Assembly (NCBI GenBank): GCA_051747065.1
Contig: JBNJFT010000004.1
Location: 1 to 34,867, forward strand
DNA: 34,867 nt
Origin: Bacteroidota bacterium
GTDB lineage: Bacteria; Bacteroidota; Bacteroidia; Bacteroidales; UBA12077
Direction of reading: 5' to 3'
A program made the translations under genes and the position numbers. The notes beneath the pieces are model-generated. The model ran no database searches, had not been told where the DNA came from, and saw only the letters and a list, made by a program, of their open reading frames with translations. Below are positions 6,201 to 31,770 of this stretch, in pieces (position 1 is the first letter of the stretch; the number at the start of each line of letters is the position of its first letter).

Positions 6201-6440
6201 TGGATTCCGAAATTATCTTCTGTGGGTTTTCAGGCAGTTTGGGCAGGATATTATGTTGAACCAAGAATGATTATTGATCCTGAGCATGGTTTATTCCTTG
6301 GATTAAGAGGCCAGGGTTATATGCTTGGACAGTATCTTGCTAAAATGTATGTGGACAAGTTAGTTGGCAAGCCTGTCCCTGATTATTTCGATAGGCTTAA
6401 ACTTTCAGGAGATGGTTTATTGGAAAAAGCCTTTAAATAG
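3207..6440 (+). CDS. Multidomain FAD/Fe-S oxidoreductase: 2Fe-2S, NAD(P)/FAD reductase, 2x4Fe-4S, BFD-like 2Fe-2S and DAO-family domains
   Basis: CGIGKCGAC..C; IIGAGPAG and VGAGNIG; C..ACNPCAFVCP and CTGCMQCVYQCP; CHC..RLGMGACRGKRC; VAGGGIAG..GSSWRN; GLRGQGYMLG. Confidence 0.85.
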   Translation: MHKITKHPILDIEKKEAVSFNFKGQTVTCEKGLTIAAALHQAGYPVHSQSLKGRNRSLECGIGKCGACEMIVDGEVRRICITKVDNVQEVQEIPRDYEPKAKTVNAEQPQTVYQTDVAIIGAGPAGLAARDVLNGHKIDNIVIDNNENIGGQFLMQTHQFFFFEKEKNLGGKRGFEIAKELAGDDHSGIFLNSTVWDILEGKRLAVKNIKTEEIFFVEADQLIIGTGAVPFMPPFENDDVPGVYTAAVVQKMMNIEETLLGKNVLTVGAGNIGYLTSYQLTQAGANVKAIVEALPEEGGFPVQANRVKRLGIPVVTNHLLLKAIPNENYDGIVGAVIAESKNFEPIPGTEKTIDGIDAINVCTGLVSDDVLYTKGKEVFGRACHGAGDAIRIGEGTSAVLRGKQVAYEILDEMGKKYDYKQYLSISKEYIDSQQEPVPILDEPYKPDKKRQEEKPFVLIDCLHGFACNPCAFVCPFGAITKSSTSTAPEIDFEKCTGCMQCVYQCPGLAIFGYNYKKNTVFLPIEIDAEENTEVFLVNNKGEKVGEGIIDKIMKKPNKTHIARVKTYGLEGEELMNARGFIAKEEYPGKMKYEPYKNGLEEDKYICHCDDVKLKDILDVIGERKFISVDEIKHTTRLGMGACRGKRCIKRLKQILPKYNKSIVGEATPRGPMSNQISMGELYPRSVHEQVKPLVNGKDVKKVKVDSLVAGGGIAGSAAFRYLAEEGKKPVLLNYGRGSSWRNIAGGRPNFSLPELSDIANNNNRIFQELQQISNVDYRPIRYVTFAHNDEIYKTLEKSIEWSDAYLIEPKDFPKELSPHFNKNLDTYKAALVTKNCWQSTPGKVLDLIRHLGEKNGGSVEEDCKVIDVKKEGNVYKVLTRNHNSDYIEYETNVFINAMGPTGHHFAKNMGIETGLFSVKHQAFITRRLPYLGVNGNPMPMMIDRRNYKGFVAVYGQQLAETGQVIGCASPAIEPNETEKNLKVNSQDFLNIGTEIFTNWIPKLSSVGFQAVWAGYYVEPRMIIDPEHGLFLGLRGQGYMLGQYLAKMYVDKLVGKPVPDYFDRLKLSGDGLLEKAFK

Positions 6441-6823
6441 GCGTATTCAGTAGTTAGTAGAACGGCGGAAAGGGGCTTGATATGGATAATCTAAATAAAA
6501 GTTGTTAAAATAATGAACGTGAAAACTTTCAAGTTAAAATTGAAGGGCACTAAATTCCATAAGTCTATTTCTGCGATAACCCAGCTTTTTTCTAATTTTG
6601 ATTGTTTTCGAGGCCGTATTTTCCTCAATAACTTACAGACTGATTGATTATTAAACCTTTAATTTTATCTGAAACTGCCTAGTTAATACATTAAAATACC
6701 AGATACAATATTTTTATATTTCGTTGATAGTTAGCTGTTATCGTATTCTGCCTGCCTGCCGAGGGCAGGTAGGAATTCTTATAGATATATAGCCGGTACT
6801 TCTGAAATTGCCTGAATGCGCCT
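6438..6823. mobile_element. Nested MITE-like repeat cluster, locus A
   Basis: End motifs at 6438-6454 (+) and at 6668-6681, 6796-6814 and 6812-6823 (inverted). Segment 6683-6814 is the reverse complement of 23811-23933. Segment ~6560-6681 resembles the reverse complement of 31362-31480. Confidence 0.7.
6751..6773. repeat. REP-like palindrome CCTGCCTGCC-GAG-GGCAGGTAGG
   Basis: 10-bp stem with one G-U pair. Related copies at 17028-17043 and 17053-17073. Confidence 0.7.
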
Positions 6824-6827
6824 TTGT

Positions 6828-6870
6828 AAAAAGAAAAAAGCTGACCTCTACGGACAGCTTTTTTCTTTTT
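6828..6870. terminator. Bidirectional intrinsic terminator
   Basis: AAAAGAAAAAAGCTG-loop-CAGCTTTTTTCTTTT between convergent genes. Confidence 0.8.
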
Positions 6871-6889
6871 GATCTGGAGTTTATGTATT

Positions 6890-7363
6890 TTAATAAACGC
6901 TTTCAGTTTCTGCAGCTGAGTAGTTTACTTTTAAAGCACTTGCCTTACGAAGTGCCTGTTTTACGTCTGTAACAATTCCCATTTCTGATTCTTTATCAAT
7001 TTTAAGAACTGTTGTCATCTTCGACCTATCATCTTCATCAAGTTTTTCACGTTCTGTAAAAATATAATCACGAATATCTTCTACTTTAGCAAAAGAATCA
7101 TTTAACTGGATTCTTGGCTCGCTACCATATCTATCTTGATAAGTAGGCTTTGGTTTACCAATATAGATATGTGTCACCAGGTTTTTCTTTTCCAGTTTTG
7201 TGACTTCTGTGGCAGAAGGTAATCTTTGAGCCACGTTGACTGTTGTTTCACGAATAACCGTAGTTACCATAAAGAAGAACAGCAACATGAAAATAATATC
7301 CGGTAATGAAGCTGTTGATAAACCCGGTACCGTTTTCTTATCATCTTTTCTGAATTTACCCAT
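6890..7363 (-). CDS. exbD: Biopolymer transporter ExbD/TolR family
   Basis: TASLPDIIFMLLFFFMVTT transmembrane segment with the conserved Asp; LKIDKESEMGIVTDVKQALR. Confidence 0.9.
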   Translation of the reverse strand: MGKFRKDDKKTVPGLSTASLPDIIFMLLFFFMVTTVIRETTVNVAQRLPSATEVTKLEKKNLVTHIYIGKPKPTYQDRYGSEPRIQLNDSFAKVEDIRDYIFTEREKLDEDDRSKMTTVLKIDKESEMGIVTDVKQALRKASALKVNYSAAETESVY

Positions 7364-7365
7364 AA

Positions 7366-7947
7366 TTAATTCCCTCCGACATTTTTAGGTTCTGCTTCTG
7401 ATATAACCTGAGGGTATGCCTCTTTGATAGCTTTTCTTTTCTCGCTGTCCAGATCTTTATACTTTTTTCCGAACTTTCTGGAAGCAATTTCATTCCTAAC
7501 TTCATTATATGCTGCCACTAATTCGTTCTGAACATGCAGATAGATTTCATAAGAGGTTCCCCGGTCGTTTTGTAAAGATATAATGTGATTTTTCGGAACC
7601 GTTACTACTCCCAATTCTGAAATCTCTTTCTCTGTTAATTCAGGTAAATTATCTTTATTTTCTGGGTTTACGATAAACTCCTTGGCAGATTCCCGAAGGT
7701 TATTTATTCTCATTGGTTCACCATCTACAAGCAGCTGATCATTAGAATTAATCAGCACTTCAAAGACGTTACGTTCTTTAATTTTCTTATCGTCTTCTGG
7801 TTGCTCCTGATCCTCAGGTAATGGAGGCAGTTTTCGGGTCAGTCCCGTGTTAACATCCATTGTTGTGGCAACCAAAAAGAATATAAGTAGCAAAAACGCA
7901 ATGTCCGCCATTGGTGCTGCATTAAAATCTGGAACTTTTTTAGCCAT
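7366..7947 (-). CDS. exbD: Biopolymer transporter ExbD/TolR family
   Basis: MADIAFLLLIFFLVATTMD; ISLQNDRGTSY. Confidence 0.9.
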   Translation of the reverse strand: MAKKVPDFNAAPMADIAFLLLIFFLVATTMDVNTGLTRKLPPLPEDQEQPEDDKKIKERNVFEVLINSNDQLLVDGEPMRINNLRESAKEFIVNPENKDNLPELTEKEISELGVVTVPKNHIISLQNDRGTSYEIYLHVQNELVAAYNEVRNEIASRKFGKKYKDLDSEKRKAIKEAYPQVISEAEPKNVGGN

Positions 7948-7966
7948 ATATTCAATTTTTTAGTCT

Positions 7967-8012
7967 TTTTACATGCGACATTCGCTTTTTATAACGAATG
8001 TCACATGTAAAA
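7967..8012 (-). promoter_or_regulatory. Intra-operon 18-bp RNA stem-loop
   Basis: Minus strand reads UUUUACAUGUGACAUUCG-10nt-CGAAUGUCGCAUGUAAAA. It is fully paired with one U-G only on the mRNA strand, and no U-tract follows. Confidence 0.55.
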
Positions 8013-8018
8013 TATTTT

Positions 8019-8447
8019 TTACTTAAACACCTTTGCAATCTCAGTGAAGATGATCGATAGTATACCCAAACCAACCAGAATATACATGGTTATAATACCC
8101 ATGCCTGACAGTTGTAAAATTTGGGGTACATTTTGTGGATTAGGTTTGGCAAAATTTAATGGCTCAGTAGAAGCAAGAGCATAACTTATCAATCCTAAAA
8201 CCACCAGTACTAATATTCCTATTAAACTTCCCCTGGCCTTTTTGGGATGCATTACCATCTCAATTAATGGAAAAATCAATGCCAATACAGCCGCAATACC
8301 TGCTAAAATGCCGGCCCACAGGAGAATCGTGTTTGTGAAAGTAGGTGCACCACTGGCAGTCTCCGGTCCGGCATAGAATATTATGCCAAACACTGCGGAG
8401 ATTGCGAGTAGAACAATTCCTAATATTCTTATCAATTTATTATTCAT
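8019..8447 (-). CDS. Four-TM hypothetical membrane protein between exbB and exbD
   Basis: Four hydrophobic segments. This position is typical of the Bacteroidota exbB-X-exbD-exbD cluster. Confidence 0.8.
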   Translation of the reverse strand: MNNKLIRILGIVLLAISAVFGIIFYAGPETASGAPTFTNTILLWAGILAGIAAVLALIFPLIEMVMHPKKARGSLIGILVLVVLGLISYALASTEPLNFAKPNPQNVPQILQLSGMGIITMYILVGLGILSIIFTEIAKVFK

Positions 8448-8462
8448 AATGTCCTGTTAATT

Positions 8463-9305
8463 TTATTGTTTTTTCTTATTGTACTTATAAATCAGGTCAA
8501 TTAACGAAATTGATGCATCTTCCATGCTATTTACAATGCCGTCAATTTTTGAAACAATATAATTATAGAATAACTGAAGTATTACACCTACAATAAGACC
8601 TGAAACTGTTGTAATCAAGGCAACTTTAATACCACCTGCAACTAATGATGGAGAAATGTTTCCTGCAGCCTCAATGTTGTCAAATGCAGCGATCATACCG
8701 ATAACAGTACCCATAAAACCAAGCATTGGTGCAATGGCAATGAATAATGAAACCCATGTTAAGCCTTGTTCTAATAAGCCGGCCTGAACACTTCCGTATG
8801 AAATCACTGACTTTTCTGCTACATCAATTCCTTCATCTGCTCTGTCTAATCCTTGATAGAAAATTGATGCCACAGGGCCTCTGGTGTTTCGGCAAACTTC
8901 TTTGGCAGATTCGAGGCCACCTTCTTCCAGTGCATCTTCTACATTTTTAAGAAGCTTTTCTGTGTTTGTTGTAGATAGGTTTAGGTAGATGATTCTTTCA
9001 ATAGAAATAGCTAAACCGAAAATTAATGCTAATAATACAACTCCCATAAAAGCAGGGCCACCTTCAATAAACTTTTGTTTGATTTGTTTATGTAAGGATT
9101 CCCTTTCTTCTGTTGTTTCATCTCCTTGAGCGGCAGCTGTAGTATCAGCCTCTGTTGTGTCGGCTGCTGTAGTATCTGCTCCCGCTTCAGTTGTGTCTTG
9201 CATTTCTGCTTTGTCGGCTTGTTCATCTTCTTGAGCCATTGTAAAAGCTGTAGATCCAAAGATCAAAAGTCCGATTACTGCGATTGTTGTGAATAATCTT
9301 TTCAT
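8463..9305 (-). CDS. exbB: MotA/TolQ/ExbB proton channel family protein
   Basis: FIEGGPAFM, IAPMLGFMGTVIGMI and GGIKVALITTVSGL motifs. Signal peptide followed by an acidic linker. Confidence 0.92.
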   Translation of the reverse strand: MKRLFTTIAVIGLLIFGSTAFTMAQEDEQADKAEMQDTTEAGADTTAADTTEADTTAAAQGDETTEERESLHKQIKQKFIEGGPAFMGVVLLALIFGLAISIERIIYLNLSTTNTEKLLKNVEDALEEGGLESAKEVCRNTRGPVASIFYQGLDRADEGIDVAEKSVISYGSVQAGLLEQGLTWVSLFIAIAPMLGFMGTVIGMIAAFDNIEAAGNISPSLVAGGIKVALITTVSGLIVGVILQLFYNYIVSKIDGIVNSMEDASISLIDLIYKYNKKKQ

Positions 9306-9374
9306 GGTTTGTCTACTGTTTTTTGTTTGATTAATGTTTATAAAAATAATAAATCTTTGTTAGAAAAAAAACGG

Positions 9375-9462
9375 CGGAGAAAGAGGGATTCGAACCCTCG
9401 TGACGCTTGTGGCGTCAACACGCTTTCCAGGCGTGCGCCTTCAGCCGCTCGGCCATTTCTCC
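9375..9462 (-). tRNA. tRNA-Ser(GGA)
   Basis: Reverse complement shows acceptor stem GGAGAAA..TTTCTCC-G, anticodon arm CACGC-CTGGAAA-GCGTG, long variable arm TGACGC-CACAA-GCGTCA and T-loop GGTTCGAATCC. CCA is not encoded (3' reads CCG). Confidence 0.96.
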
Positions 9463-9523
9463 CGATATCTTTTTCACCATAATTTTGCGGCACAAATTAC
9501 AAAAAAATATGATTCAACAAATA

Positions 9524-10555
9524 TTAATTAGTAATTTCTCCTCTCATTGGTTTGTTTAATGTTTCTTTTATTTGCTTATAGTCAGAAAATTGCCCTAATA
9601 AAAACATTGATTTTGTTAATGCAGCCTCTGTAGTCATGTCATACCCATTAATCACTCCTGCATTTAGAAGTCTTTTTCCATTGTCATATTTTGACATATC
9701 CACCTGACCTGCCATGCATTGTGTTATATTAAGCACTATCTTATTATGTTTTACAGCATTTTCTAATGCCCGAATAAGCCATTCTGTCCCTGGAGCATTT
9801 CCTGCACCATAAGTTTCCAGGATTATACCTTTTATCTTCTTTGATTTGGTCATAAATTCTACGATATCTTTATCTAATCCCGGAAATAATCGGATAATAC
9901 CAATTCTTGAATCAATTTGATCATAGACTTCTAACTCTTTCTTTTTTGTTGGATAAAATATTGCTGAATTATTGTATCTGATATTTATTCCTATTTCTGC
10001 CAAATCCGGGTAGTTGGGCGAAGCAAAAGCATTAAAGTGTTCTGAGCTTACCTTTGTTGTCCTGTTTCCTCTATATAGTTTATTCTCAAAATAAATTGCT
10101 ACTTCAGGTACTAAGGGCTGTTCTTCTTTTTTTGTTGCTGCTATTTCTATTGCTGTTATTAAATTTTCTTTTCCATCTGTTCTTAATGTACCAATTGGTA
10201 GTTGTGAACCGGTAAAAATCACAGGTTTTTGAAGGTTTCCTAACAAAAAACTTAATGCTGAAGCGGTATATGCCATAGTGTCTGTTCCGTGTAATACCAG
10301 GAAACCATCGTAATTTGAATAGTTATCGTTTATGGTGTGTGCTAATTTAACCCAAAATTCCGGAGTGACATCTGATGAGTCAATAAGAGGCGAAAAAGTA
10401 ACCGTGTCAATATTGTATCCGAAACTTTTTAGTTCAGGCACCTGATCTACGATGTGAGAGAAATCAAACGGAGATAAACTGCCGGTTTCGGGATTTTTTA
10501 CCATCCCTATGGTTCCTCCGGTATAGATAATCAGTATATTTGCTTCTTCACTCAT
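9524..10555 (-). CDS. ansA: Type I (cytoplasmic) L-asparaginase
   Basis: IYTGGTIGM, HGTDTMAYTAS, TGSQLP and ETYGAGN motifs. Confidence 0.93.
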   Translation of the reverse strand: MSEEANILIIYTGGTIGMVKNPETGSLSPFDFSHIVDQVPELKSFGYNIDTVTFSPLIDSSDVTPEFWVKLAHTINDNYSNYDGFLVLHGTDTMAYTASALSFLLGNLQKPVIFTGSQLPIGTLRTDGKENLITAIEIAATKKEEQPLVPEVAIYFENKLYRGNRTTKVSSEHFNAFASPNYPDLAEIGINIRYNNSAIFYPTKKKELEVYDQIDSRIGIIRLFPGLDKDIVEFMTKSKKIKGIILETYGAGNAPGTEWLIRALENAVKHNKIVLNITQCMAGQVDMSKYDNGKRLLNAGVINGYDMTTEAALTKSMFLLGQFSDYKQIKETLNKPMRGEITN

Positions 10556-11328: not shown

Positions 11329-11502
11329 ATTATTTGAACTGAAAGATGGAGCCCGCTCCAAAAGATAAAGTTATTTCAATTAAAATCTTTAGCTGTTAAG
11401 TCGATGCTATCATTTTATTGTTTTGTGTGTTTGTTTGATGTAGCTGTTCGGTGCATTTTAGTTTTATTCAATACTGCAAATCTTGTAAAAAAAAGTCGAA
11501 AT

Positions 11503-11530
11503 AAAAAAAGGGGCTCTAAAAAGCCCCCTT
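11503..11530 (-). terminator. Intrinsic terminator of gdhA
   Basis: AAGGGGGCT-loop-AGCCCCCTT with a T-tract on the minus strand. Confidence 0.8.
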
Positions 11531-11551
11531 GAATTGATTAGCCTGTTTTTT

Positions 11552-12925
<1,374 letters not shown>

Positions 12926-15476: not shown

Positions 15477-15845
15477 ATGGAAATAGTGATCGGCCATTAC
15501 CACTTGCATCCCGGAGGTGTAACTAAGATTATTGATTCGCAGATAAAAAGCTTACGGCAAAATAGTCCTGGCATTAAACTGAAAATTGTTTGTGGCCATG
15601 CTGATGATGAACGTGTGCGAATGTATCAGAAAGATAATGTTGCTGTAATTATCAACAGTGACTTAAATTATCTTGCTGAAGGGCTTACTAAATCCGAACT
15701 GGAAGAAAAATTCCGTGAACTGAAATCGTTTTTTATTTCTCATTTGCCGGAAGATGGTATTCTCCATTTCCATAATGCCAATTTGGGCAAGAATCCATTG
15801 GTTTCCTACTGTATATATGAATTGGCAAGGGACACTATCTACTAG
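15477..15845 (+). pseudogene. Truncated glycosyltransferase-like gene (GT-B N-terminal fragment)
   Basis: HYHLHPGGVTKII and HFHNANLGKN resemble the N-terminal lobe of GT4-like enzymes. Only 122 aa. The last codons and the stop come from the repeat element at 15834-15894. Confidence 0.6.
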
Positions 15846-15894
15846 CTACTATCTGCTTTTTTTTAAATTTATCCTTCACTTGTGAAATTGCCTA
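15834..15894 (-). mobile_element. MITE-like end module, locus B
   Basis: Reverse complement TAGGCAATTTCACAAGTGAAGGATAAATTTAAAAAAAAGCAGATAGTAGCTAGTAGATAGT aligns with 23748-23800. Confidence 0.7.
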
Positions 15895-15933
15895 TTTCAA
15901 TCACTTACAATTTTAAATGCCGGAACCAATTAG

Positions 15934-19845: not shown

Positions 19846-20512
19846 GTTGGTTTGTTTGTTTTAGTTTATTAATGAGTTGCCTTGTGGATTTTTCTATGTC
19901 ATTGCTATTTGCCAGTGATGAAGAAATAACCACTCCGTGAATACCTGTTGCTACCAATTCTTCAATATCTTCCGGTTCTATTCCCCCAATCGCAAAAACA
20001 GGAAGTGTAATTCCATGAGAATTTAACACGTCCATTATGTTATGAAAACCTTCCAATCCTAATGTTGGAGATAGTTTTTGTTTTGTAGTAGTATGCCGAA
20101 AAGGGCCAAGTCCTACGTAATTTACACCTTTCCGGTAAAGCGCCATAATTTCTTCTGCGCTGTTTGCAGTTCCCCCAATGATTTTTCCCTCACCTAAAAG
20201 TTGCCTTGCTTTTTCCGGTGCCATATCTTCTTTTCCTACGTGAACCCCGTCGGTATCTACCCGAAAGGCAAATTCAACATGGTCATTAACGATTAGTTTT
20301 GCGCCAAAATCACGGCAAATTGCTTTAACATCGGCCCCGGTTTCTGCCCATGTGGAAGCATCTGTTTCTTTTAAACGCAGTTGAATCCATCTGCACCCAC
20401 CTTTACAAACATTTTCGACTTGTTGTGGGATGCTGGTTTCGCTCCACTGATTGGTAATGAATTGCAGCCGCTCTTCAACAGGTATTTTCATTGGGTTTAT
20501 TTCTTTATTCAT
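19826..20512 (-). CDS. thiE: Thiamine-phosphate synthase
   Basis: [34 protein letters not shown] and AIGGI. Start placed at MNKEIN (20512). Confidence 0.9.
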
Positions 20513-21140
20513 AAATCGATTTTTTGAGTTCGCTGAATTGTTTCTGTAAGTTTTCCATATCAGGATATTGAGAAAAATTTTTCCAAAGGCAGCCCAATAC
20601 AGCATATCCACTAAAAGGAATATTCTGTAGCGCCTTAATATTGTCTGGATTTATGCCGCCAAGTGCGATAATTTCTGTATTTATTTCATTTTGGCTAAAA
20701 AAATTGCTTAAATTATCTACCGAAAACCCCGATTTGTGACCCTCTTTCGAGATGCTGTTAAAAACCGGGCTGATAAAGGCATAGTCGTAATTAGCGCCCA
20801 GCAATATAACTTCATCTTCGCTGTGCGTTGAAATGCTAATGTGGTACCCTTCAAATTTTTCTTCTATATCCGTGTTTTTGGTTTTCCGGGTGATATGCAC
20901 ACCCTTTAATCCATAAATTTTCACCAGTTCATAATGATTGTGCAAAATAATATTTGCGTAAAACTCTTCAGGAATTTTCTGCAGTAGATGTTCGAGCTCT
21001 TCTGTCTCCCAATTTGGTTTTCTCAGATGAAAATATTTCAAGCCCGTTTGAAAAAGGCTGCTTATCGCTTTCGCCTCTTGATCAAGCCAACCCGGGTGGG
21101 ATATAACTATGAGTTTCTTATTTTCTGATATGGATCTCAT
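20505..21140 (-). CDS. ThiE-like/TenI family protein
   Basis: FHLRKP, STHS, YAFISPVFNSISKEG and IIALGGI. Start uncertain (21140 or 21170). Confidence 0.8.
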   Translation of the reverse strand: MRSISENKKLIVISHPGWLDQEAKAISSLFQTGLKYFHLRKPNWETEELEHLLQKIPEEFYANIILHNHYELVKIYGLKGVHITRKTKNTDIEEKFEGYHISISTHSEDEVILLGANYDYAFISPVFNSISKEGHKSGFSVDNLSNFFSQNEINTEIIALGGINPDNIKALQNIPFSGYAVLGCLWKNFSQYPDMENLQKQFSELKKSIYE

Positions 21141-21222
21141 TGCCCGTGTTGATGTCATGAATTTCCCCATTAATGTACTTTTTTGTTGATCCTGGCAGCG
21201 GTGATTGGCTTATGTTACTCAT
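21118..21222 (-). pseudogene. thiC: Probable thiC relic (34-codon ORF MSNISQSPLPGSTKKYINGEIHDINTGNEIHIRK)
   Basis: Not in the ORF track. It sits where thiC usually lies (after thiS, before the tenI-like gene). The N-terminal part resembles the start of long-form ThiC (P.P.S.K.Y..G..H.I) and the end resembles the ThiC C-terminus (G.EIY). Confidence 0.65.
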
Positions 21223-21539: not shown

Positions 21540-21602
21540 ATGCAAAATTTTTGTTTTCTTTAACTCAGGAATAGTGCCGGTAAAATATACGGAATGAGAT
21601 TA

Positions 21603-21682
21603 TCTTTTTCCTCCGGCAGCACTAACTGCTTCAGGTTCAAAGGGTATGATCTCAGCCCGTATTTTGGGCACCCCTGTTTGAT
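21603..21682 (-). promoter_or_regulatory. TPP riboswitch
   Basis: Reverse complement AGGGGTGCCC..GGGCTGAGATCATACCCTTTGAACCTGAAGCAGTTAGTGCTGCCGGAGGAAA has the canonical GCTGAGA, ATACCC and GAACCTGA motifs. Upstream of thiS. Confidence 0.95.
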
Positions 21683-22284: not shown

Positions 22285-22317
22285 TCATGAAGTTTTCAAA
22301 AATTGTCATATCTATAT

Positions 22318-23727
22318 ATGAAGAAATGTCTTAATCATCCGGTTTTCAAAACAGTCTCTGAAGTGATAGAAGAAGAAGGTTGGGTAGCATACGCAATTGG
22401 AGGTTATGTAAGAGATTGCTATCTGAAACGCCCTTCAAAGGATATTGATATTGTAGTTTTGGGAAGTGGAATTGAACTTGCGGAAAAAACCGCAAACAAA
22501 CTGGGTATTAAACAAGTGAGTGTGTTTAAAAACTTCGGAACAGCAATGCTAAGGTATGAAGATGTTGAAATTGAATTTGTAGGTGCCAGGCGAGAATCTT
22601 ATGATCGAAATAGCAGAAAACCAATAGTGGAAGACGGCACATTGGAAGATGACCAAAAACGGCGGGATTTTACCATTAATGCCCTTGCAATGAGTTTGAA
22701 TAAGAATAATTATGGAGAACTGACAGACCCGTTTGAAGGGCTTAAGGATCTGAAAAACAAAACAATTCGCACTCCACTCGAACCCAGCCGTACGTTTTCA
22801 GATGATCCTTTAAGAATGATGCGGGCGATACGTTTTGCAACTCAATTAAGATTCTATATTGAAGAACATACTTTAGAAGCAATTACTGAAAATGCCAACC
22901 GGATTGAGATCGTTTCAAATGAACGCATTGTAGAAGAACTGCATAAGATATTGCTTTCACCTAAACCTTCAATTGGTTTTACCTTGTTGGACAAGACAGG
23001 TTTGCTGAATTACTTTTTACCTGAACTGAGTCAGTTGAAAGGAGTGGAGGAACGCAATGGCTGGAGTCACAAAGACAATTTTCAGCACACACTGCAGGTA
23101 GTAAACAATGTTGCCCGTAAAAGTGATAAACTTTGGCTTCGCTGGGCAACTTTATTGCATGATATTGGCAAGCCCATAACCAAAAGGTTTAATAAGGAGC
23201 AGGGCTGGACATTTCATGGACATGATAAAGTAGGGGCAGATATGATTCCTGCTCTTTTCAAAAGGTTGAGATTGCCCTTAAATGAAAAAATGAAATATGT
23301 TCAAAAATTAGTTGAATTACACCTTCGTCCGATCGCCCTGGTAGAAGAAGTAACTGATTCCGCATTGCGCCGCTTATTATTCGAGGCTGGAGATGACCTT
23401 GAAGATTTAATGATTTTATGCGAAGCTGACATCACATCAAAAAACATGAAAAGGCTGAAACGCTTTTTGAACAATTTCCAAAGGGTGCGGCGAAAACTTA
23501 AAGAAATAGAAGAAAAAGACCGGGTGAGAAACTTCCAGCCTCCTGTTTCCGGTGAAGTCATTATGAAAACTTTTGATATCAAACCGGGAAGAAATGTCGG
23601 AATCATCAAAAATGCCATTAAAGATGCCATCCTTGACGGCAAAATAGAAAATGACTATCAGCAAGCGTATGATTTTATGATTGAAAAAGGGAAAGAGCTC
23701 GGATTGAAGCCGGTGAATGATGAATAA
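22318..23727 (+). CDS. cca: CCA tRNA nucleotidyltransferase with HD domain
   Basis: [32 protein letters not shown] and LLHDIGKP motifs. Confidence 0.9.
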
Positions 23728-23747
23728 CTTTCCTGGAAAATTCTACT

Positions 23748-24154
23748 TAGGCAATTTCAGTAGTAGCGGCTAAATTTGAAAAAAGTAGATAGTAGATAGC
23801 ATCGATTAATCAGGCAGTTTCAGAAGTACCGGCTATATTCTTATAAGAATCCAGAATGAAGAACTCAGAATACGATAAGGCTAACTATCAATGAAATATA
23901 AATAATTGTATAGGTATTTTAATGTGTTAATTAAAAGAATGAGCATTTTATAAAATTCCTATTAAAAAACGAGGTCATATCTTCTCTCCTGCCTGCTGCT
24001 TAATTTTTTCTCTTTTCCTTTCTCTGTTCAAACGCTGACAGGCCTTGAAGGCGCTGTCAGGTTTTTCTCCTCGCTGCTACTGCTTCTGCGACTGCTTACT
24101 CATTAATTAAATGATGGCCTTTATAATATTTGCCCCTACTTCTGAAATTGCCTA
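23748..24154. mobile_element. Nested MITE-like repeat cluster, locus C
   Basis: Outer inverted ends TAGGCAATTTCAGTAGT (23748) and ACTTCTGAAATTGCCTA (24138-24154) match 16/17. Internal end at 23811. Segment 24078-24153 is homologous to 31573-31648. Confidence 0.75.
24030..24064. repeat. REP-like hairpin CTGACAG-GCCTTGAAGGC-G-CTGTCAG
   Basis: Nested inverted repeat inside locus C. Confidence 0.5.
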
Positions 24155-24177
24155 AAGTAATAGAAAAAGATAGTGTC

Positions 24178-24981
24178 TTATGCTTTCTTCTTCTTTTTGT
24201 TATTTTTTTCTTGTATTTCTTCAGCGATATCAGAGTCAACCAGAATTCTTCCACAATATTCGCATACAATAATCTTTTTCCTTGAACGAATATCCAACTG
24301 TCTTTGCGGAGGTATTTTGTTAAAGCAACCACCACAGGCACCACGTTCAACTCTTACAACGGCGAGGCCATTTCTTGCATTTTCTCTGATTCGGGTATAT
24401 GCATTAACTAATCTGTCCTCAATAAGTTTTTTAATTTCTTCAGACCGTTTATTTAGCTTTTCCTCGTCCTTTTTCGTTTCAGCAATAATAGAATCGAGTT
24501 CGTCTTTTTTATTTTGAAGGTCCTGCTTTCGCTCATCGAGTTCTTTTTTTGCTTCATCAATGTCTTTTTGGCGGTGCTCTATTTTATTCTCGAATTCTTT
24601 GATATGTTTCTGCCTCAATTCAATTTCCAGTGTCTGAAATTCAATTTCTTTAGACAAGGATTCGTACTCGCGGTTATTTCTTACATTATTTTGTTGCTTT
24701 TTATATTTTTCAATTAAAGCCTCAGACTCTTTAATTTCATTCTTTTTATTTGAAATAGAAGTTTCCAGTTCTTTTACTTCATCTTCAAAATTTTTCAGGC
24801 GTGTTTCTAAACCGGCTACCTCGTCTTCTAAATCCTGCACCTCCAAAGGCAGTTCTCCACGCAGTCTTTTGATTTCATCAATGGAAGAATCAACAGTTTG
24901 TAATTCGTACATTGCCCTTAGCTTATCCTCAACAGAAATCTCTTTGGGATCTGCTGCTTTTTTATTTTTTGTAGCTGCCAT
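24178..24981 (-). CDS. Coiled-coil C4-type zinc-ribbon domain protein
   Basis: Long coiled coil plus CGGC..CEYCGRIL. Usual partner of the Nif3-like gene. Confidence 0.88.
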   Translation of the reverse strand: MAATKNKKAADPKEISVEDKLRAMYELQTVDSSIDEIKRLRGELPLEVQDLEDEVAGLETRLKNFEDEVKELETSISNKKNEIKESEALIEKYKKQQNNVRNNREYESLSKEIEFQTLEIELRQKHIKEFENKIEHRQKDIDEAKKELDERKQDLQNKKDELDSIIAETKKDEEKLNKRSEEIKKLIEDRLVNAYTRIRENARNGLAVVRVERGACGGCFNKIPPQRQLDIRSRKKIIVCEYCGRILVDSDIAEEIQEKNNKKKKKA

Positions 24982-26106: not shown

Positions 26107-26454
26107 TTATTCAATATTTTCCAAATCCTCACGAATATCAACAAGCATTGAGCGAATTTGTTTGAGGGATTCTATAACTTTGAAGTTGTATATAGTGCCT
26201 TCCCTGTTTTCTTTCATTTTCTTTTTCGCACCTTTTAAAGTCATTCCCAAATCTTTTACCAGGTAATAGATTATATGAAAGTTTTCAATATCTTTTTCTG
26301 TAAAATACCGGTTGCCTTTTTTGTTTTTTTTGGGGTTAATAACATCAAATTCCTTCTCCCAATAACGAATTAATGAAGTATTCACTCCAAACATTTCAGC
26401 AACTTCGCCGATACTATAATATAATTTTTCAACTTTTTTTTCTTTATAAGGCAT
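26107..26454 (-). CDS. MerR family transcriptional regulator
   Basis: YYSIGEVAEMFGVNTSLIRYWEKEF..GNRYF. Confidence 0.9.
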   Translation of the reverse strand: MPYKEKKVEKLYYSIGEVAEMFGVNTSLIRYWEKEFDVINPKKNKKGNRYFTEKDIENFHIIYYLVKDLGMTLKGAKKKMKENREGTIYNFKVIESLKQIRSMLVDIREDLENIE

Positions 26455-26533
26455 AAGCAAACAATTTGCGAAATATTAACAAATAGGCAAAACTTAATTT
26501 GGAAAGTTGTTATTGTATCCAGTCAAAAACATA

Positions 26534-27505
26534 TTAATCAAAAGATTGACCACTGTTTCGTGAGATAAAAATCATTTTTTCATATTGTTCGGGAGTCAGG
26601 TCATTAAAATAATAATGAACCGGATTGACTTTTTCATCCCCTTTTTCCACTTCATAATGAAGGTGGGGGGCTGTAGATAGTCCGGAATTGCCTAAATAAC
26701 CAATTACATCCCCTCTTTTGACTTTTTGTCCTTTCCTCACATTAAAATCAGCGAGATGAGCATATCGGGTTTTGTAGCCGAACCCATGATCAATGACTAC
26801 TCTTTTTCCGTACCCGCGGTAAGAGTCCTTTACTTTCTTAACAACCCCATCGCCGGTAGCATAAACTTCAGTACCCGTTGAAGCGGTAAAATCCATACCC
26901 TCGTGAAATTTTTTAATTTTATAGATGGGATGAATTCGCCAGCCAAATCCTGAAGCAGTTCGGGTAAGATCTTCGTTTGATACCGGCATAATAGCTGGAA
27001 TAGCTGACAACATTTCTTTTTTATTATCAGCCATATTTATTATCTCGTCATAGGACCTGGATTGCACATAAAGCTGTTTTGATAATTTATCCAGCCTCTT
27101 GGATGTTTTTATAACCAATTCGGAATTTTCAAGGTTTTTTAATTTATTATAGTGTTCAGTTCCACCATATCCTGCTTCTCTGACGGAAGAAGGTATTGGG
27201 TCGGTTTCAAAAATAGTGCGATAAATGTTATTGTCACGCTGTTGCAAATCTTGCAGTGTGTTTTCTACTAAATCAAATCGTTTATCGAGAATTTCATATT
27301 GAAGTTTAAGTTGTTCATTCTCTCTTTTCAAACCTTTTTCTTTGGGAGTATCAAAAAAAGTGCTGAATACCAAGTTGTAAACCACAGCAATTACCACAGT
27401 GGCAAAGAAATAAGTAAGAAAACGGAAGAACTTATCTTTCCAGGTAAGTTTCACCTTTTCATACTTAACTGTTTTGGGGTTATATTTATACTTAAACTTC
27501 TCCAT
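26534..27505 (-). CDS. M23 family metallopeptidase
   Basis: N-terminal TM segment, coiled coil, HEGMD and APHLHYEV. Confidence 0.92.
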   Translation of the reverse strand: MEKFKYKYNPKTVKYEKVKLTWKDKFFRFLTYFFATVVIAVVYNLVFSTFFDTPKEKGLKRENEQLKLQYEILDKRFDLVENTLQDLQQRDNNIYRTIFETDPIPSSVREAGYGGTEHYNKLKNLENSELVIKTSKRLDKLSKQLYVQSRSYDEIINMADNKKEMLSAIPAIMPVSNEDLTRTASGFGWRIHPIYKIKKFHEGMDFTASTGTEVYATGDGVVKKVKDSYRGYGKRVVIDHGFGYKTRYAHLADFNVRKGQKVKRGDVIGYLGNSGLSTAPHLHYEVEKGDEKVNPVHYYFNDLTPEQYEKMIFISRNSGQSFD

Positions 27506-27508
27506 TTT

Positions 27509-28480
27509 TTAATCCATTGGATTTCTGGATTTTGAAGCCACTTCAATCATCTCATCATATTCCTCTGCCGTTACATCATTAAAATAATAATGCATTGGAT
27601 TCACCGCCCGATTGTTTCTTCTTATCTCATAATGAAGGTGCGGCCCTGTGGATCGGCCAGTATTGCCTAAAGTTCCTATGACATCACCTCTGCTTACTTC
27701 ATCTCCTTCTTCTACTCCAATCTTGCGTAGATGAGCATAAATTGTTTTGTATCCAAATCCATGGTCGATTATCACTTCTTTTCCGTAACCAAAACGGCTG
27801 AATTCAGCCTTAATTACTTTTCCGTCACCGGTTGCATAAATATCGGTTCCAACAGGCCCGGTAAAATCCATACCTCTATGCATACGGATCTTTCCGTTAA
27901 AAGGATCCTTGCGTTTTCCAAAATAATCACTTATTCGTCTAAAATCATCAATTGCTATTGGCTGGACAGCAGGAATACATGAGTTCATTTCTTCCTTGTT
28001 CCTGGCCAAAACGGCAACAGAATCAAAAGATTTGGACTGGATATAGACTCGTTTTCTTAAATTTGAAATTTTGTTTGCAGTTTTAACTAATTTTTCAGAA
28101 TAAGGTAGGTTTTCCAGTTCTCTGAATTCCTCAGCTCCTCCAGTTCCTGCTTCCCTGATGTTATCCGGAATTGGCTCTAATTCAAAGATGGGTCTGTATA
28201 GTCTGTCATCCCGTCGTTCTACCAATTCCAGGTGAGAATTAATTTCCTCTAATTGGTCTTGCAAAACATCAAACTTCCATTCAATTTCTTCTTGTTCTGC
28301 TTTTAATTCTTTAACCTGGGGTGTGTCGTAATAAGATGTGACAATAACATGTAGAATTATAGCGGTAACAACTGTCACAAAGAAAAAGGATAATATATTG
28401 ATGAGCTTCTTTTTTGAAGAGACCCTTATTTTTTTGTAAGTAAGCGTATATGGATCAAATCGATATTTTATTTTTGCCAT
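27509..28480 (-). CDS. M23 family metallopeptidase (tandem paralog)
   Basis: N-terminal TM segment, coiled coil, HRGMD and GPHLHYEI. Confidence 0.92.
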   Translation of the reverse strand: MAKIKYRFDPYTLTYKKIRVSSKKKLINILSFFFVTVVTAIILHVIVTSYYDTPQVKELKAEQEEIEWKFDVLQDQLEEINSHLELVERRDDRLYRPIFELEPIPDNIREAGTGGAEEFRELENLPYSEKLVKTANKISNLRKRVYIQSKSFDSVAVLARNKEEMNSCIPAVQPIAIDDFRRISDYFGKRKDPFNGKIRMHRGMDFTGPVGTDIYATGDGKVIKAEFSRFGYGKEVIIDHGFGYKTIYAHLRKIGVEEGDEVSRGDVIGTLGNTGRSTGPHLHYEIRRNNRAVNPMHYYFNDVTAEEYDEMIEVASKSRNPMD

Positions 28481-28672
28481 AAAAAATAATGTTTCTCTTT
28501 TCTTACTACGAATGTAAGGAGTAAATGGTTCGCAAAACTTTGTTCAACTTTAAAATGCTTATTTGTAGCAAATCTAAAGGATTTATTTAATTTTACAAAA
28601 TATTTTAGATAAAAATCATTCTTGAGAAAGATATCAAGTGAATGGCGATAAAAAATTTTAAAATAATCTTTT

Positions 28673-31306
28673 ATGACTTCAAAAGAAATTAGAAAAAAGT
28701 TTCTGGACTTTTTTCAGAATAAATCACATACTGTTGTTCCCTCTGCACCCATGGTAGTTAAAGACGATCCAACTTTAATGTTTATCAATGCAGGGATGAA
28801 TCAATTCAAAGATGTATTTCTTGGCAATGAACAGCCAAAAGATAAACGTGTAGTGGATTCGCAGAAATGTATGAGGGTTTCAGGAAAACACAATGATCTG
28901 GAAGAAGTAGGCCATGATACCTATCATCATACAATGTTTGAAATGTTGGGGAATTGGTCATTCGGGGATTATTTTAAAGAAGAAGCTATTGCATGGGCAT
29001 GGGAATTTCTTGTTGAAGAATTGGGGATTCCGGAAGAAAGGTTTTATGCTACTGTATTTGAGGGTGATGAAAGAGATAGTCTGCAAAAGGATGAAGAATC
29101 CTATCATTTCTGGGAAAAATATCTTCCTGAAGGACGTATATTAAGCGGCTCTAAAAAAGACAACTTTTGGGAAATGGGTGATACCGGACCGTGTGGCCCA
29201 TGTTCTGAAATCCATGTCGATTTCCGTAGTGAAGAAGATCGCAAAAAAGTGCCCGGTGACCGACTCGTAAACCAGGATCATCCGGAGGTCATTGAAATCT
29301 GGAATCTTGTATTTATTCAATTCAACAGAAAAGCCGACGGAAGTCTTGAAGCTTTGCCGCAAAAACATGTGGATACAGGAATGGGATTTGAAAGGCTCTG
29401 TATGATAATGCAGAACAAGCTTTCAAATTATGATACAGATGTTTTCCAGCCGATAATACAGGAGATAGCAAAAATCTCAGGCAAACATTACGGAGATAAT
29501 GAGGCTACGGATATTGCCATGCGTGTAGTAGCCGATCATCTGAGAGCTATATCATTTTCCATTGCTGATGGACAGTTGCCTTCAAATGTGAAAGCCGGTT
29601 ATGTGATCAGACGAATCTTAAGAAGAGCCCTGAGATATGGATACAGCAACCTGGAACAAAAGGAACCCTTCATATATAAATTGGTGCCAACGTTAATTGA
29701 AGTTATGGGTGATGCCTATCCCGAACTTCAGAATCAGAAAACCCTTATAGAAAAAGTAATAAAAGAGGAAGAACAATCTTTTCTTAAAACTCTGGACACA
29801 GGCATTAAGTTGCTAAATCAGGTTATAAAAAAGACATTGGACAATAATTACAACGTAGTTGACGGTAAAACAGCCTTTGATTTGTATGATACTTATGGAT
29901 TTCCCCTGGATTTGACCGAACTTATTCTGAAAGAACATGATCTGGTTGTTAATCGCAAAGAATTTAACGAAGAGCTTGAAAAACAAAAGAAACGCTCAAG
30001 GCAAGCGGGACAGGTTGAAACAGGTGACTGGATAAAACTTCAGGAAGATGACAAAGAGGAGTTTGTAGGTTACGATTACCTGAATACTGAAGTACAAATT
30101 ACACAATATAGAAAAGTAAAGTCAAAAGGAAAAGAATTCTATCAGCTTGTATTTAATTATACGCCTTTTTATTCAGAAGCAGGTGGCCAGGTAGGCGATA
30201 CAGGATATATTGAGGCCAACGGAGAAAAGATAAATATTATAGATACAAAAAAAGAAAATAATCTTATAGTTCATTACACAAAAAAGCTTCCTTCGGATGT
30301 CTCTGCAACTTTTCGGGCTGTCGTTAGTAGGGAGGAAAGAGTGAAAACTGCTAACAATCATACAGCAACCCACTTGCTGCACCATGCATTAAGGAAAATA
30401 CTGGGCAGTCACGTAGAACAAAAAGGTTCTCTTGTTCATCCGGATTACTTACGATTTGATTTTTCTCATTTTCAGAAACTTTCAAAAGAAGAAATAAACA
30501 AAATTGAACAGGCTGTTAATCATTATATTAGAGAAAACATGCCGCTTGAAGAAAAACGGGAGATTCCGATGAAAGAGGCAAAAGAGATGGGAGCTACCGG
30601 TCTTTTCGGAGAAAAGTACGGAGACGTAGTCCGTGTCATCCGGTTTGGCGATTCTATCGAATTATGCGGAGGAACACACGTTGAAGCCACAGGACAAATC
30701 GGTTTCTTTAAAATTACTTCTGAAGCAGCAATTTCAGCAGGAATAAGGAGAATTGAAGCTATTACTGCCGATAAAGCCGAAGAATATATTTATGAAAAAT
30801 TAGACACCCTGGAGGAAATCAGAGAACTGCTGAACAATCCGAAAAATCTCCCAAAAAGTGTGGAAAAATTGGTGCAGGAGAATACATATCTTAACAAACA
30901 GGTTGAAGAGCTTCTTCAGGATAAAGTAAAAAATATAAAACAAGAGCTGGCCAATAAGAAAGAAAATATCAATGGAATTAATTTTATTGCAGATGTCGTG
31001 GAAATTGAATCGGCCGCGGCAATGAAAGACATGGCCTTTCAATTGAAAAAAGAGGTTGATAACCTGGTTCTATTCATGGGAGCTAATATAAAAGGAAAAG
31101 CGAACCTTTCTCTTATGATCTCAGAAAACCTGGTTGATGAAAAAGGCCTTAATGCAGGTAATATTATCCGTGAAGCTGCGAAGGAAATTAAAGGAGGAGG
31201 AGGCGGACAGGCATTTTATGCTACGGCGGGTGGCAAAGACCCCGATAAACTTAAGGCCGCATTGGATAAAGGGAAAAATATTATTCTTGAAAGTATGAAG
31301 CAATGA
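28673..31306 (+). CDS. alaS: Alanine--tRNA ligase
   Basis: [45 protein letters not shown] and GGGGG motifs. Confidence 0.98.
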
Positions 31307-31324
31307 GATTTTTGGGAGGTTCGA

Positions 31325-31770
31325 TAAATATCTATAAGAACACAGAACACAGAATTCAGAATAGGCGTATTCAGAAATACTTAAGGGTTTAATTATTAGT
31401 CTATTTGCAGGACTGAGTAATAATTTTCAGCACTAAAATTAACCAAAATCATCAAAAAACGAGGTTACGGAATTATCGACATGTGAAAAAAACTCACAAA
31501 ACTTTAGGTTATTCTAATACGTATTACGAAATATATTTTGTTAACCCTTATATGCTGCAGATTTTCTCTGCTTACTGCAACTGCGACTGCTTCCTCATTA
31601 GCTAATTGAGACTTATTTTTATATTTGCCTTCACTTCTGAATTTGCCTTTTTTATCGTATTCTGAATTCTGTATTCTGTATTCTGAATTCTGTATTCTTA
31701 TAGATATTTAGCCGGTACTTCTGAAACTGCCTATATAACCAAAATTGGTCGCTACTTCTGAATATGTCTA
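31325..31770. mobile_element. Nested MITE-like repeat cluster, locus D
   Basis: End motifs at 31362-31378 (+) and at 31633-31648, 31717-31733 and 31754-31770 (inverted). Heptamer module at 31325-31362 is an inverted copy of 31659-31710. Confidence 0.72.
31659..31700. repeat. Heptamer tandem array (ATTCTGW)x6
   Basis: ATTCTGA ATTCTGT ATTCTGT ATTCTGA ATTCTGT ATTCTTA. Confidence 0.85.

Follow-up and report, generated by a model that had tools for sequence, protein, structure and literature searches.

A MITE-like repeat family with IS5-like ends at convergent gene junctions of a Bacteroidota bacterium

The stretch of DNA analysed here (the window) comprises 34,867 nt of the forward strand of contig JBNJFT010000004.1 from assembly GCA_051747065.1 (Bacteroidota bacterium, UBA12077). 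The list of open reading frames agrees with the original prediction of exactly four tail-to-tail junctions (6440/6890, 15845/15934, 23727/24178 and 31306/31773, here junctions 1 to 4) and contains three divergent ones. About 12 copies of a 17-bp motif had been proposed at the tail-to-tail junctions, and a search with that pattern, allowing up to 2 mismatches, did return 12 matches in the window, against 0.08 expected and with none of 100 shuffles reaching that number. Ten of these lie within the four convergent spacers (6438+, 6798-, 15878-, 23748+, 23811+, 24138-, 31362+, 31633-, 31717- and 31754-), while the other two (21806- and 22882-), with 2 mismatches each, fall within ORFs and have no repeat behind them. 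Some reverse-strand copies had to be redrawn: the one placed at 6668 is degenerate (6667-6683), differing from the motif at 3 positions by eye, and those placed at 6796 and 6812 resolve into a full copy (6798-6814) and a second, truncated one (about 6811-6824). Repeated DNA, gauged by the depth of BLAST matches elsewhere in the genome, reaches 5-99 only between the outermost motifs (intervals 6440-6815, 15835-15897, 23745-24158 and 31325-31736) and is 0 in the flanking genes. The absence of a transposase from the window was borne out by searches with the Pfam profiles PF01797, PF01609 and PF13358 and by tblastn with four insertion sequence (IS) transposases; PF01797 and PF01609 matched only other contigs of the genome, and PF13358 gave no match in the genome search. 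The parts recognised at each junction are listed in Table 1.

Table 1. Parts of the repeat family at the four convergent junctions of the window (depth, BLAST depth as above).
Feature	Position	Strand	Observations
Outer end copy, junction 1	6438..6454	+	TA followed by inverted repeat GGCGTATTCAGTAGT; ORF 3207..6440 terminates at its TAG
Element 1, junction 1	6440..6683	.	Truncated B-derived arm and module M4; closed by the degenerate inverted repeat 6667-6683 (-); depth 10-12 over 6445-6620, 2-4 over 6620-6680
A-type arm (M1)	6684..6814	-	Inverted repeat 6798-6814; GC-rich palindrome/hairpin at 6746-6774; depth 46-54 copies
Truncated second inverted repeat CTGAATGCGCCTT	6811..6824	-	Adjoins the first; compound or nested end
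Short solo arm, type E (M2)	15834..15894	-	Inverted repeat 15878-15894; heptamer-like tail overlaps stop of ORF 15477..15845; depth 5-10
Type E arm	23748..23800	+	Inverted repeat 23748-23764; starts 21 nt past stop of CCA/poly(A) polymerase-like ORF 22303..23727
A-type arm (M1)	23811..23933	+	Inverted repeat 23811-23827; left end of 340-bp A-B chimeric unit 23813-24152; depth ~50
B' arm, 194 nt	23961..24154	-	Inverted repeat 24138-24154; GC hairpin ~24030-24066 plus M3 (24078-24153); 24 nt from stop of ORF 24178..24981; depth 16-76
A-type arm fragment	31325..31361	+	Heptamers ACAGAAC/ACAGAAT, no recognisable inverted repeat; starts 19 nt past AlaRS stop codon; depth 10-13
Two-ended unit, 288 nt including flanking TA pairs	31362..31649	.	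Inverted repeats 31362-31378 (+) and 31633-31649 (-); right arm B-type (M3)
A-type arm	31652..31733	-	Inverted repeat 31717-31733; six-unit heptamer array GTATTCT at 31657-31698 (TRF); depth up to 99
Solo inverted repeat, one mismatch	31754..31770	-	3 nt from stop of ORF 31773..32198; no repeat-family sequence behind it (depth 0 at 31745-31770)

Behind the outermost repeat of junction 1 an internal deletion has probably occurred, since the repeat runs straight into heptamer-array sequence that is internal in B-type arms elsewhere (cf. C2_10703; by eye). The compound end at the other side of the same junction, TAGGCGYATTCAGGCA..., was found again at C22:14612, C51:1384 and C53:14605. In junction 3, the A-B chimeric unit is flanked without duplication (TAATCA versus TAAAGT) and belongs to a rare arm combination, seen in 2 of the 62 adjacent inverted pairs of the genome. 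In junction 4, the two-ended unit likewise has unlike flanks (AGAATA versus TTTTTT), and the A-type fragment beside it is 90% complementary to 31672-31710 (inverted repeat I4, 39 nt).

Modules shared between the junctions had been proposed behind the motif, and these were assessed by local alignment, each against 200 shuffles. M1 is clear, with 79% identity over 133 nt between 6683-6814 and the reverse complement of 23811-23933 (score 119, shuffle maximum 25) and 95% over 39 nt for its part in common with 31652-31733; M3 also stands, 24078-24153 and 31573-31648 being 79% identical over 77 nt. M2 holds in part: 15842-15894 aligns over 53 nt with the reverse complement of 23748-23800 at 81% identity, but its supposed likeness to 31741-31770 reduces to the motif alone (score 15 versus a shuffle maximum of 20). 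M4 is weak, at 68% over 111 nt against the reverse complement of 31362-31480 (score 34, shuffle maximum 29). Recombination of modules between loci is not free: of the 62 pairs, 41 belong to one of three arm combinations (B-C 17, A-D 15 and B-D 9), mostly 250-285 bp long. The two-ended units as a whole (n=62) range from 92 to 520 bp, most often 250-285 bp, and contain no ORF of at least 90 aa, only unrelated genes occurring between distant pairs. Besides these families, solo ends, nested insertions and chimeras are numerous, and many of these pieces contain heptamer arrays. Period-7 arrays account for 117 of the 531 TRF arrays genome-wide (units AATACAG, AATTCAG, ACTATCT...), and about half of them (61/117) lie within 300 nt of an element end. 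Intergenic arrays of 7-nt units also occur in cyanobacteria as short tandemly repeated heptamers (STRR), from which the present arrays differ in phylum and in units.

Genome-wide, 272 motif copies were counted in 2.67 Mb, with a partial control in which mononucleotide shuffles were used and only matches keeping CAGAAGT exactly were counted. The predicted restriction to convergent junctions holds at this scale: copies occupy 90 of 223 convergent spacers (40%), 25 of 1284 co-directional and 4 of 261 divergent ones (odds ratio 35, p = 3.5e-63), the classes carrying some error because they derive from crude ORF calls (at least 90 aa). The ends face outward in 89 of the 90 convergent spacers that are occupied, with every '+' copy to the left of every '-' copy; 44 of the 90 have only one detectable end. 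The stop codon itself is supplied by 18 of 130 outermost copies.

The motif is composed of the TA of a target duplication and a terminal inverted repeat of 15-16 nt, GGCANWTTCAGAAGT(A). Perfect 6-bp flanking repeats surround 15 of the 62 pairs (2000 shuffles: mean 1.3, maximum 6), and 26 have flanking repeats with at most one mismatch (shuffles: mean 7.5, maximum 16). The composition of the flanks (T.73, A.74, W, W, T.74, A.89) gives a target consensus of TAWWTA, so the flanking TA noted in the original prediction is real but forms part of a full duplication of 6 bp. The same ends bound six full-length ISs of 1642-1658 bp in other Bacteroidota (L117, L172 and L163 and, within the same taxonomic family, L201-L203 of three genomes). 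As expected of a parent IS, each has one ORF flanked by short inverted repeats and, outside these, a short target duplication: the ORF encodes an IS5-like DDE transposase of 452-485 aa, and the direct repeats are perfect 6-bp copies in four of the six and have one mismatch in the other two.

The GGC termini are probably those of an IS5-type element, the transposase matching Pfam DDE_Tnp_1_2 (36.3 bits, cut-off 29.2) and DUF772 (26.9, cut-off 23.1). The resemblance extends to the single DDE transposase, the short imperfect inverted repeats starting with GGC and the short target duplications, whereas the NCBIfam model IS5_1 is reached with only 176.6 bits (cut-off 275) and the second match is an ISNCY model (ISNCY_1, 90.9 bits, cut-off 325). 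In ISfinder, the ISNCY subgroup typified by ISDol1 comprises ISs of 1.6-1.9 kb with 6-7 bp duplications; this subgroup may be nearer to the parent IS than IS5. A relative with 45% identity on a Phocaeicola plasmid is annotated simply as 'transposase'. Past the inverted repeat, the 93 nt of the D-type arm agree at 59-66 of 85-91 positions with the end of the family-level ISs that lies upstream of the transposase (z-score 4.3-9.9, against at most 2.4 at the other IS end), and comparison of the A, B and C arms with the IS ends gave nothing significant beyond the inverted repeat (z -2.6 to 1.6). Judged by these alignments, D is the only arm type demonstrably derived from the IS beyond its terminus.

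A transposase ORF bounded by the same ends thus exists in other Bacteroidota but was not found in this assembly, where tblastn with the four IS transposases gave no match at E up to 1; with the metagenome-assembled genome (MAG) 89.6% complete and restricted to contigs of at least 2.5 kb, this negative result extends to the assembly rather than to the whole cell. No cognate transposase was found in the related genomes G002 and G010 either, and the family may have died out in this lineage.

Taken together, it is very probable that the motif is the terminal inverted repeat of a MITE family whose parent is a Bacteroidota IS of about 1.65 kb with one IS5-like DDE transposase gene. Short non-coding units, terminal repeats shared with an IS, target duplication and many copies are all in evidence, and the assembly yielded no cognate transposase. 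The original prediction is largely supported: the family is prolific by its copy number, non-autonomous in that its two-ended units are devoid of ORFs and no cognate transposase was found in the assembly, and re-inserted into its own copies, as nested or compound ends occur at 6798-6824 (TAGGCGYATTCA abutting GGCA...) and at other loci. In such a scheme a transposase supplied in trans would bind both inverted ends, and the unit would be inserted at a TAWWTA-like site by a 6-bp staggered cut, giving the 6-bp direct repeats; later, units would degenerate, some being reduced to a single end, exchange arms by recombination, take further insertions and expand their internal 7-nt arrays. Mobilisation of the MITEs in trans appears plausible, and they may be active at the present day. 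The 194-nt B' arm is 98-99% identical at four loci (in this window and on contigs C18, C49 and C133; 94% to the C1 copy), suggesting that these copies are recent.

The concentration between convergent genes calls for a separate explanation. It could be explained by retention, as insertions there would break no promoter or operon, and we lean towards purifying selection, rather than site preference of the transposase, as the main reason for persistence at these places. Target-word supply does not explain the bias, TAWWTA being rarer in free convergent spacers (3.6 per kb) than in co-directional (5.3) or divergent ones (7.3), with 4695 sites within genes. This scarcity also fits active targeting, by which the bias would arise at insertion and not through selection, with the transposase preferring convergent junctions, attracted for instance by terminator hairpins, by positive supercoiling of the DNA or by copies already there. 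Of the 11 classifiable pairs with perfect duplications, presumably the youngest, nine are convergent and two co-directional, several insertion sites adjoin terminator hairpins (C1, C73 and C196), and nested insertions into other copies occur. Against this, no conserved feature beyond TAWWTA is visible in the surroundings of the 15 intact sites, and four of the 15 lie exactly at stop codons, as expected if selection removes anything further in. We consider targeting possible, but the less likely of the two.

Elements of MITE origin might by now be kept at convergent junctions because they serve the host, by terminating transcription, insulating against convergent read-through or stabilising 3'-UTRs. 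The 40% occupancy of convergent spacers and the copies that provide a stop codon (18/130) would suit such a role, as would the arm hairpins (the palindrome at 6746-6774, and that of the B' arm followed by GTTTTTC), the failure of a consensus scan to detect any other terminator at junctions 3 and 4, and the filling of junction 1 by different arm types in G000 and in its closest relative G002. Yet 13 of the 16 genomes of the genus manage with 0-2 copies, the arm types are diverse and many are decayed, the terminator scan finds none within the units of junctions 3 and 4, and no junction reaches the gathering score of any Rfam 15 covariance model, the weak E-value matches being far below it. We regard domestication as unlikely. 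Such a role would add to a MITE origin rather than exclude it.

That the motif is no element end but a host protein-binding or DNA-uptake site, or a REP sequence served by a RAYT, is highly improbable: the 15-mer is conserved across several Bacteroidota classes and the genome has two Y1 (IS200-like) transposase genes, one of them (C258:929-1477) in a convergent spacer beside a B-type arm, but the repeat that flanks this RAYT-like gene is another one, GC-rich and with 5-8 genome copies, no motif lies within 1.5 kb of the other Y1 gene (C63), the motif lacks palindromic symmetry, and the reading is contradicted by its absence or near absence in most congeners and by its bounding transposase-bearing ISs with target duplications.

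The MITE family is patchily spread among congeners. A 16-mer of the motif occurs 117 times in G000, 54 in G002 and 16 in G010; the 13 remaining genomes of the genus have 0-2 copies and the 25 outside it 0-1. In other Bacteroidota assemblies the motif is repeated on 2-6 contigs, followed each time by the same sequence and often no more than about 250 nt away from a contig end, and in a Flavobacterium contig about 150 nt separate it from the 3' terminus of a gene for an IS5-like transposase. No joint skipping the units was found in the DNA runs searched, and no empty-site allele in G002: in that genome junction 1 is occupied by a different arm type, the 3' side of AlaRS has no unit and also a different neighbour gene, and junction 3 falls at a contig end.

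Among characterised systems, BrickBuilt/MITEPgRS and other MITEs of Porphyromonas gingivalis are described as always intergenic, with IS5-family-like inverted repeats and with 'leader' and 'tail' arms, often incomplete, that surround an internal tandem array without a transposase remnant (PMC4596501). The present family shares with them the Bacteroidales host, the intergenic position, IS5-like inverted repeats, two often incomplete arms around a tandem array and lack of transposase remnants. According to the same text (PMC4596501), BrickBuilt has ends of GAGACC..., in contrast to GGCANWTTCAGAAGT here, a 23-nt minisatellite against 7-nt arrays, 19 copies against about 270 end copies and variable target duplications against 6 bp of TAWWTA; the word 'convergent' has no occurrence in that paper. 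As both ends and repeat unit differ, identity with BrickBuilt was rejected. Further close systems, treated in a review (PMC3184786), are SPRITE of Streptococcus pneumoniae and REP/BIME. REPs are described there as GC-rich palindromes moved by Y1 (RAYT) transposases, unlike the DDE-type inverted ends and 6-bp duplications found here, and the mosaic of modules is a trait in common with BIMEs.

Genome-wide scanning with the end-motif consensus TAGGCANNTTCAGAAGT was done on the metagenome-assembled genome that contains the window (G000; 2.67 Mb in 319 contigs, 36.6% G+C, 89.6% complete, the window being contig C4), and 272 occurrences were retrieved at up to 2 mismatches, against 4, 0 and 1 in a partial shuffle control. 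Spacers were classified on ORF-based gene calls of at least 90 aa made for the present analysis. Among convergent spacers 90 of 223 were occupied, compared with 25 of 1284 among co-directional and 4 of 261 among divergent ones, an odds ratio of 35 for convergent against the remaining spacers (p = 3.5e-63), and the predicted tie of the motif to convergent junctions is thereby upheld genome-wide as an enrichment. All '+' copies lie to the left of all '-' copies in 89 of these 90 convergent spacers, so that the TAGGC side faces the gene; in 18 of 130 outermost copies the gene's own stop codon is supplied by the motif's TAG, for example at 6438.

Within the window, the ORF map confirmed the four tail-to-tail junctions and added three divergent ones. 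The original prediction counted about 12 motif copies, all of them at convergent junctions. The count was reproduced with its 17-mer at up to 2 mismatches (12 matches, 0.08 expected). Ten of these belong to the four convergent spacers, and the remaining two, each with 2 mismatches, fall within ORFs and have nothing repeated behind them. BLAST of the junctions against the rest of the genome gave a depth of 0 in the flanking genes and of 5-99 exactly between the outermost motif copies. Among the shared modules proposed behind the motif, M1, the main pair of M2 and M3 were recovered, M4 was weak, and the likeness of M2 to 31741-31770 found no support beyond the motif itself.

Table. Positions and copy numbers of the features discussed (coordinates in the window unless a contig or locus is named; strand in brackets).
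Feature	Location	Number or size
Convergent junction 1	6440/6890	
Convergent junction 2	15845/15934	
Convergent junction 3	23727/24178	
Convergent junction 4	31306/31773	
Motif copies, convergent spacers	G000	159 of 272
Motif copies, co-directional spacers	G000	32 of 272
Motif copies, divergent spacers	G000	5 of 272
Motif copies inside ORFs	G000	17 of 272
Motif copies without called gene on one side, towards contig end	G000	59 of 272
Arm type A	G000	58 of 260
Arm type B	G000	80 of 260
Arm type C	G000	32 of 260
Arm type D	G000	29 of 260
Arm type E	G000	5 of 260
Other arms	G000	56 of 260
Arm pair B-C	G000	17 of 62
Arm pair A-D	G000	15 of 62, mostly 251-283 bp
Arm pair B-D	G000	9 of 62, all 272-285 bp
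Arm pairs mixed or unclassified	G000	21 of 62
B' arm	23961-24154	194 nt
tRNA gene	9375-9462 (-)	
ORF downstream of TPP riboswitch	20505..21170 (-)	
TPP riboswitch	21591-21682 (-)	
Zn-ribbon and poly(A)-polymerase-like genes, across junction 3	22303-24981	
Paralogous ORFs	26534-27505 and 27509-28480 (-)	323 aa
AlaRS gene	28673-31306	
Y1 transposase gene (L082)	C258:929-1477	182 aa
Repeat flanking Y1 gene	C258:745-855 and 1505-1640	~100 nt
DDE_Tnp_1 frame (L083)	C228:2186-2893	
IS982-like element, Polaribacter chromosome	L178:1116-2125	1010 bp

An 18-mer scan of one genome per species matched at least 100 stretches, with 80 listed as loci, against about 280 chance matches expected in that much DNA by our own arithmetic, and many single matches in non-Bacteroidota coding DNA look like chance. 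Several Bacteroidota assemblies, including Flavobacteriaceae MAGs, Algibacter, Mariniflexile, Polaribacter, Flavobacterium, Sinomicrobium, Carboxylicivirga and Thermophagus, have 2-6 contigs on which the motif is backed by the same sequence and often sits no more than about 250 nt from a contig end, which is the signature of a dispersed repeat. On a 761-nt Flavobacterium contig an IS5-like transposase gene has its 3' end about 150 nt short of the motif, and complete elements at three loci measure 1642-1655 bp between inverted motif copies, each with one ORF of 453-472 aa as an open frame (452 aa from the first ATG at L172). The L172 protein matched Pfam DDE_Tnp_1_2 and DUF772 above cut-off, and reached 176.6 bits with NCBIfam IS5_1, below its cut-off of 275, and 90.9 bits with ISNCY_1. 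Used as query against 41 genomes of the window's family, it retrieved full-length homologues at 61-64% identity in three sister-genus genomes, and the three loci fetched span 1648-1658 bp each with the motif at both ends. Perfect 6-bp direct repeats (CGGCTA, TACATT, TAAGTA, TATTTT) stand outside GGC...GCC in four of these six full-length insertion sequences (ISs), and repeats with one mismatch in the other two, indicating that the element starts at GGC. The GGC terminus of the original prediction therefore stands, its TA being the end of a 6-bp target duplication and not a 2-bp one, and a transposase ORF bounded by the same ends, which it had proposed to look for, is present in other genomes. 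The parent, an IS5-like insertion sequence, has a conserved 15-nt end shared by Flavobacteriia, Bacteroidia and Saprospiria-like genomes. A search of G000 for its transposase yielded no homologue at E up to 1, and in genus g1 the search gave only 23-30% identical matches, in G005 and G015.

Other parents were discarded. An IS630/Tc1 origin, suggested by the TA flanks, fails on the 6-bp duplication and on the lack of PF13358 matches in G000, G002, G010 and G006. IS982 was rejected since the IS982-like element of a Polaribacter genome is separated from the motif by 40 nt and carries 19-nt inverted repeats of its own, the two being unrelated neighbours; mobile elements cluster at that spot. An rRNA-operon boundary, suggested by contig-end positions of the motif in drafts, was dropped when the transposase genes and the full-length ISs came to light. 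Neither the C228 DDE_Tnp_1 (IS4/IS5-type) frame, which is broken by one TAG and has no motif at its ends, nor the Y1 genes on C63 and C258 carry the motif. The C258 gene, IS200-like and RAYT-like and situated in a convergent spacer, was also rejected as the motif's partner, being flanked by its own GC-rich, structured repeat; this contains GGCGCAAGCGTCCGCTTGTGCC, has only 5-8 copies in G000 and is unrelated to the motif. A B-type arm lies directly upstream of this gene region.

Among 62 adjacent inverted pairs without Ns in G000, perfect 6-bp flanking repeats were present in 15 and one-mismatch repeats in a further 11; 2000 shuffled pairings gave 1.3 perfect ones on average and never more than 6. 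The six bases before GGC in 249 copies read T(.73) A(.74) W W T(.74) A(.89), which gives TAWWTA as the preferred target. Clustering of the 45 nt behind the repeat in 260 copies resolved the arm types, and their pairing is non-random. D arms share 70-73% identity over about 90 nt with the family-level ISs at the end upstream of the transposase (z 4.3-9.9) and no similarity with the other end; A, B and C arms gave nothing significant beyond the repeat against either end. The B' arm recurs at three other loci with 98-99% identity while the partner D arms differ more, so that the arm histories are partly separate, through recombination or conversion. Compound ends such as TAGGCGYATTCA abutting GGCA... 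were seen repeatedly.

Heptanucleotide arrays are unusually common in G000, the main units being AATACAG, AATTCAG, AATGCAG, ACTATCT and AACTACT. Out of 531 TRF arrays, 117 have period 7, 67 period 14 and 18 period 21; about half of the period-7 arrays (61 of 117) lie within 300 nt of the motif and the rest farther from MITE ends. Some sit within arms and others immediately beyond ends, where nested insertion is the probable cause. The Bacteroidetes -7 box is TAnnTTTG. A promoter reading of the B-arm sequence just inside the repeat was set aside, as the match is one base off in most B arms and absent in A and C.

The family is patchily distributed. A 16-mer of the motif counted 117 in G000, 54 in its closest relative G002 (flanking genes at 84-87% nucleotide identity) and 16 in G010, with 0-2 in each of the 13 remaining congeners and 0-1 in each of 25 genomes outside the genus. 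Weak BLAST matches to arm sequence with only two strict motif matches in G006 suggest that the strict motif may miss diverged relatives. Congener gene order is not conserved around three of the four junctions, and hence no clean empty site is definable. The Zn-ribbon gene, in the window a convergent neighbour of the poly(A)-polymerase-like gene across junction 3, lies 1.7-7 kb upstream of it and points away on one contig in at least six congeners. The AlaRS neighbour differs from that in G002 and six other congeners, and the AlaRS itself has at most 69% identity to those of Bacteroidales and Marinilabiliales-like genomes. From these comparisons, rearrangement at repeats is a possible source of the gene-order differences at MITE-filled junctions.

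The supply of target words does not explain the convergent bias: the density of TAWWTA per kb is 3.6 for convergent spacers free of elements, 5.3 for co-directional and 7.3 for divergent ones, and 4695 sites lie within genes of G000. Of 15 perfect-duplication units, four lie precisely at a stop codon, and three adjoin terminator-like hairpins; among the 11 classifiable, nine are convergent and two co-directional. Strong purifying selection and insertion preference are both compatible with this distribution, and we lean somewhat towards purifying selection as the cause. A similar bias is already published for SPRITE and for REP elements (PMC3184786). With 40% of convergent spacers occupied against 2% elsewhere, G000 offers one of the cleaner natural data sets on targeting versus selection in bacterial MITEs.

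A secondary host role of the MITEs as terminator or insulator is possible. A hairpin is visible by eye at ~6838-6868 and is missing from the terminator consensus scan list; Rfam, loose thresholds included, and the consensus scans gave nothing firm or usable on this role, little weight being given to the sigma-70-type/terminator scan, which is not designed for Bacteroidota promoters. Four public runs were consulted, all as Logan contigs, which break at repeats (e.g. 24125, 31707). One DNA contig spans the AlaRS stop into the unit (30185-31515) and one RNA-library contig covers 24125-24735, transcript ends not being resolvable from a contig; MITE bins show 10-30 times the depth of the flanks, as expected of a repeat, and no joint skipping a unit was found in these runs. 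A wider reading, which we consider improbable, would make the MITEs the standard filling of convergent junctions, with hairpins and 7-nt arrays as terminators or insulators, ends providing stops and arms reshuffling gene order. Hundreds of near-identical arms would then act as crossover points, and the poly(A)-polymerase-like, Zn-ribbon and AlaRS neighbourhoods depart from congeners exactly at MITE-filled junctions; in its most novel version the transposase would sense convergent transcription or terminator structure. The parents with their transposase, the duplications and the patchy distribution contradict the alternative in which the motif is a host binding site, an uptake sequence or a REP/RAYT system.

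Overall, the original prediction of a MITE-like family is supported with corrections and its observation confirmed. An ordinary mechanism, with a named parent, explains the striking repeat landscape of this uncultured member of the Bacteroidales. Among described systems the P. gingivalis MITEs, and BrickBuilt in particular, come closest in kind: BrickBuilt is always intergenic and has IS5-like ends as well as leader and tail arms, with a tandem array inside (PMC4596501). The G000 family differs in ends, repeat unit, copy number and duplication. Searches confined to the published literature did not find the end sequence or family described. The end motif with its TAWWTA duplication permits annotation of such elements in Bacteroidota genomes, and they account for many contig breaks, as seen from the copies without a called gene towards the contig end.

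Beyond the repeats, the window holds a TPP riboswitch (60.2 bits against a gathering score of 54.3) upstream of a minus-strand ORF, a tRNA gene, and two adjacent paralogous ORFs with about 75% DNA identity in register at 975-nt spacing, as deduced from direct repeats D3, D6, D8 and D10.
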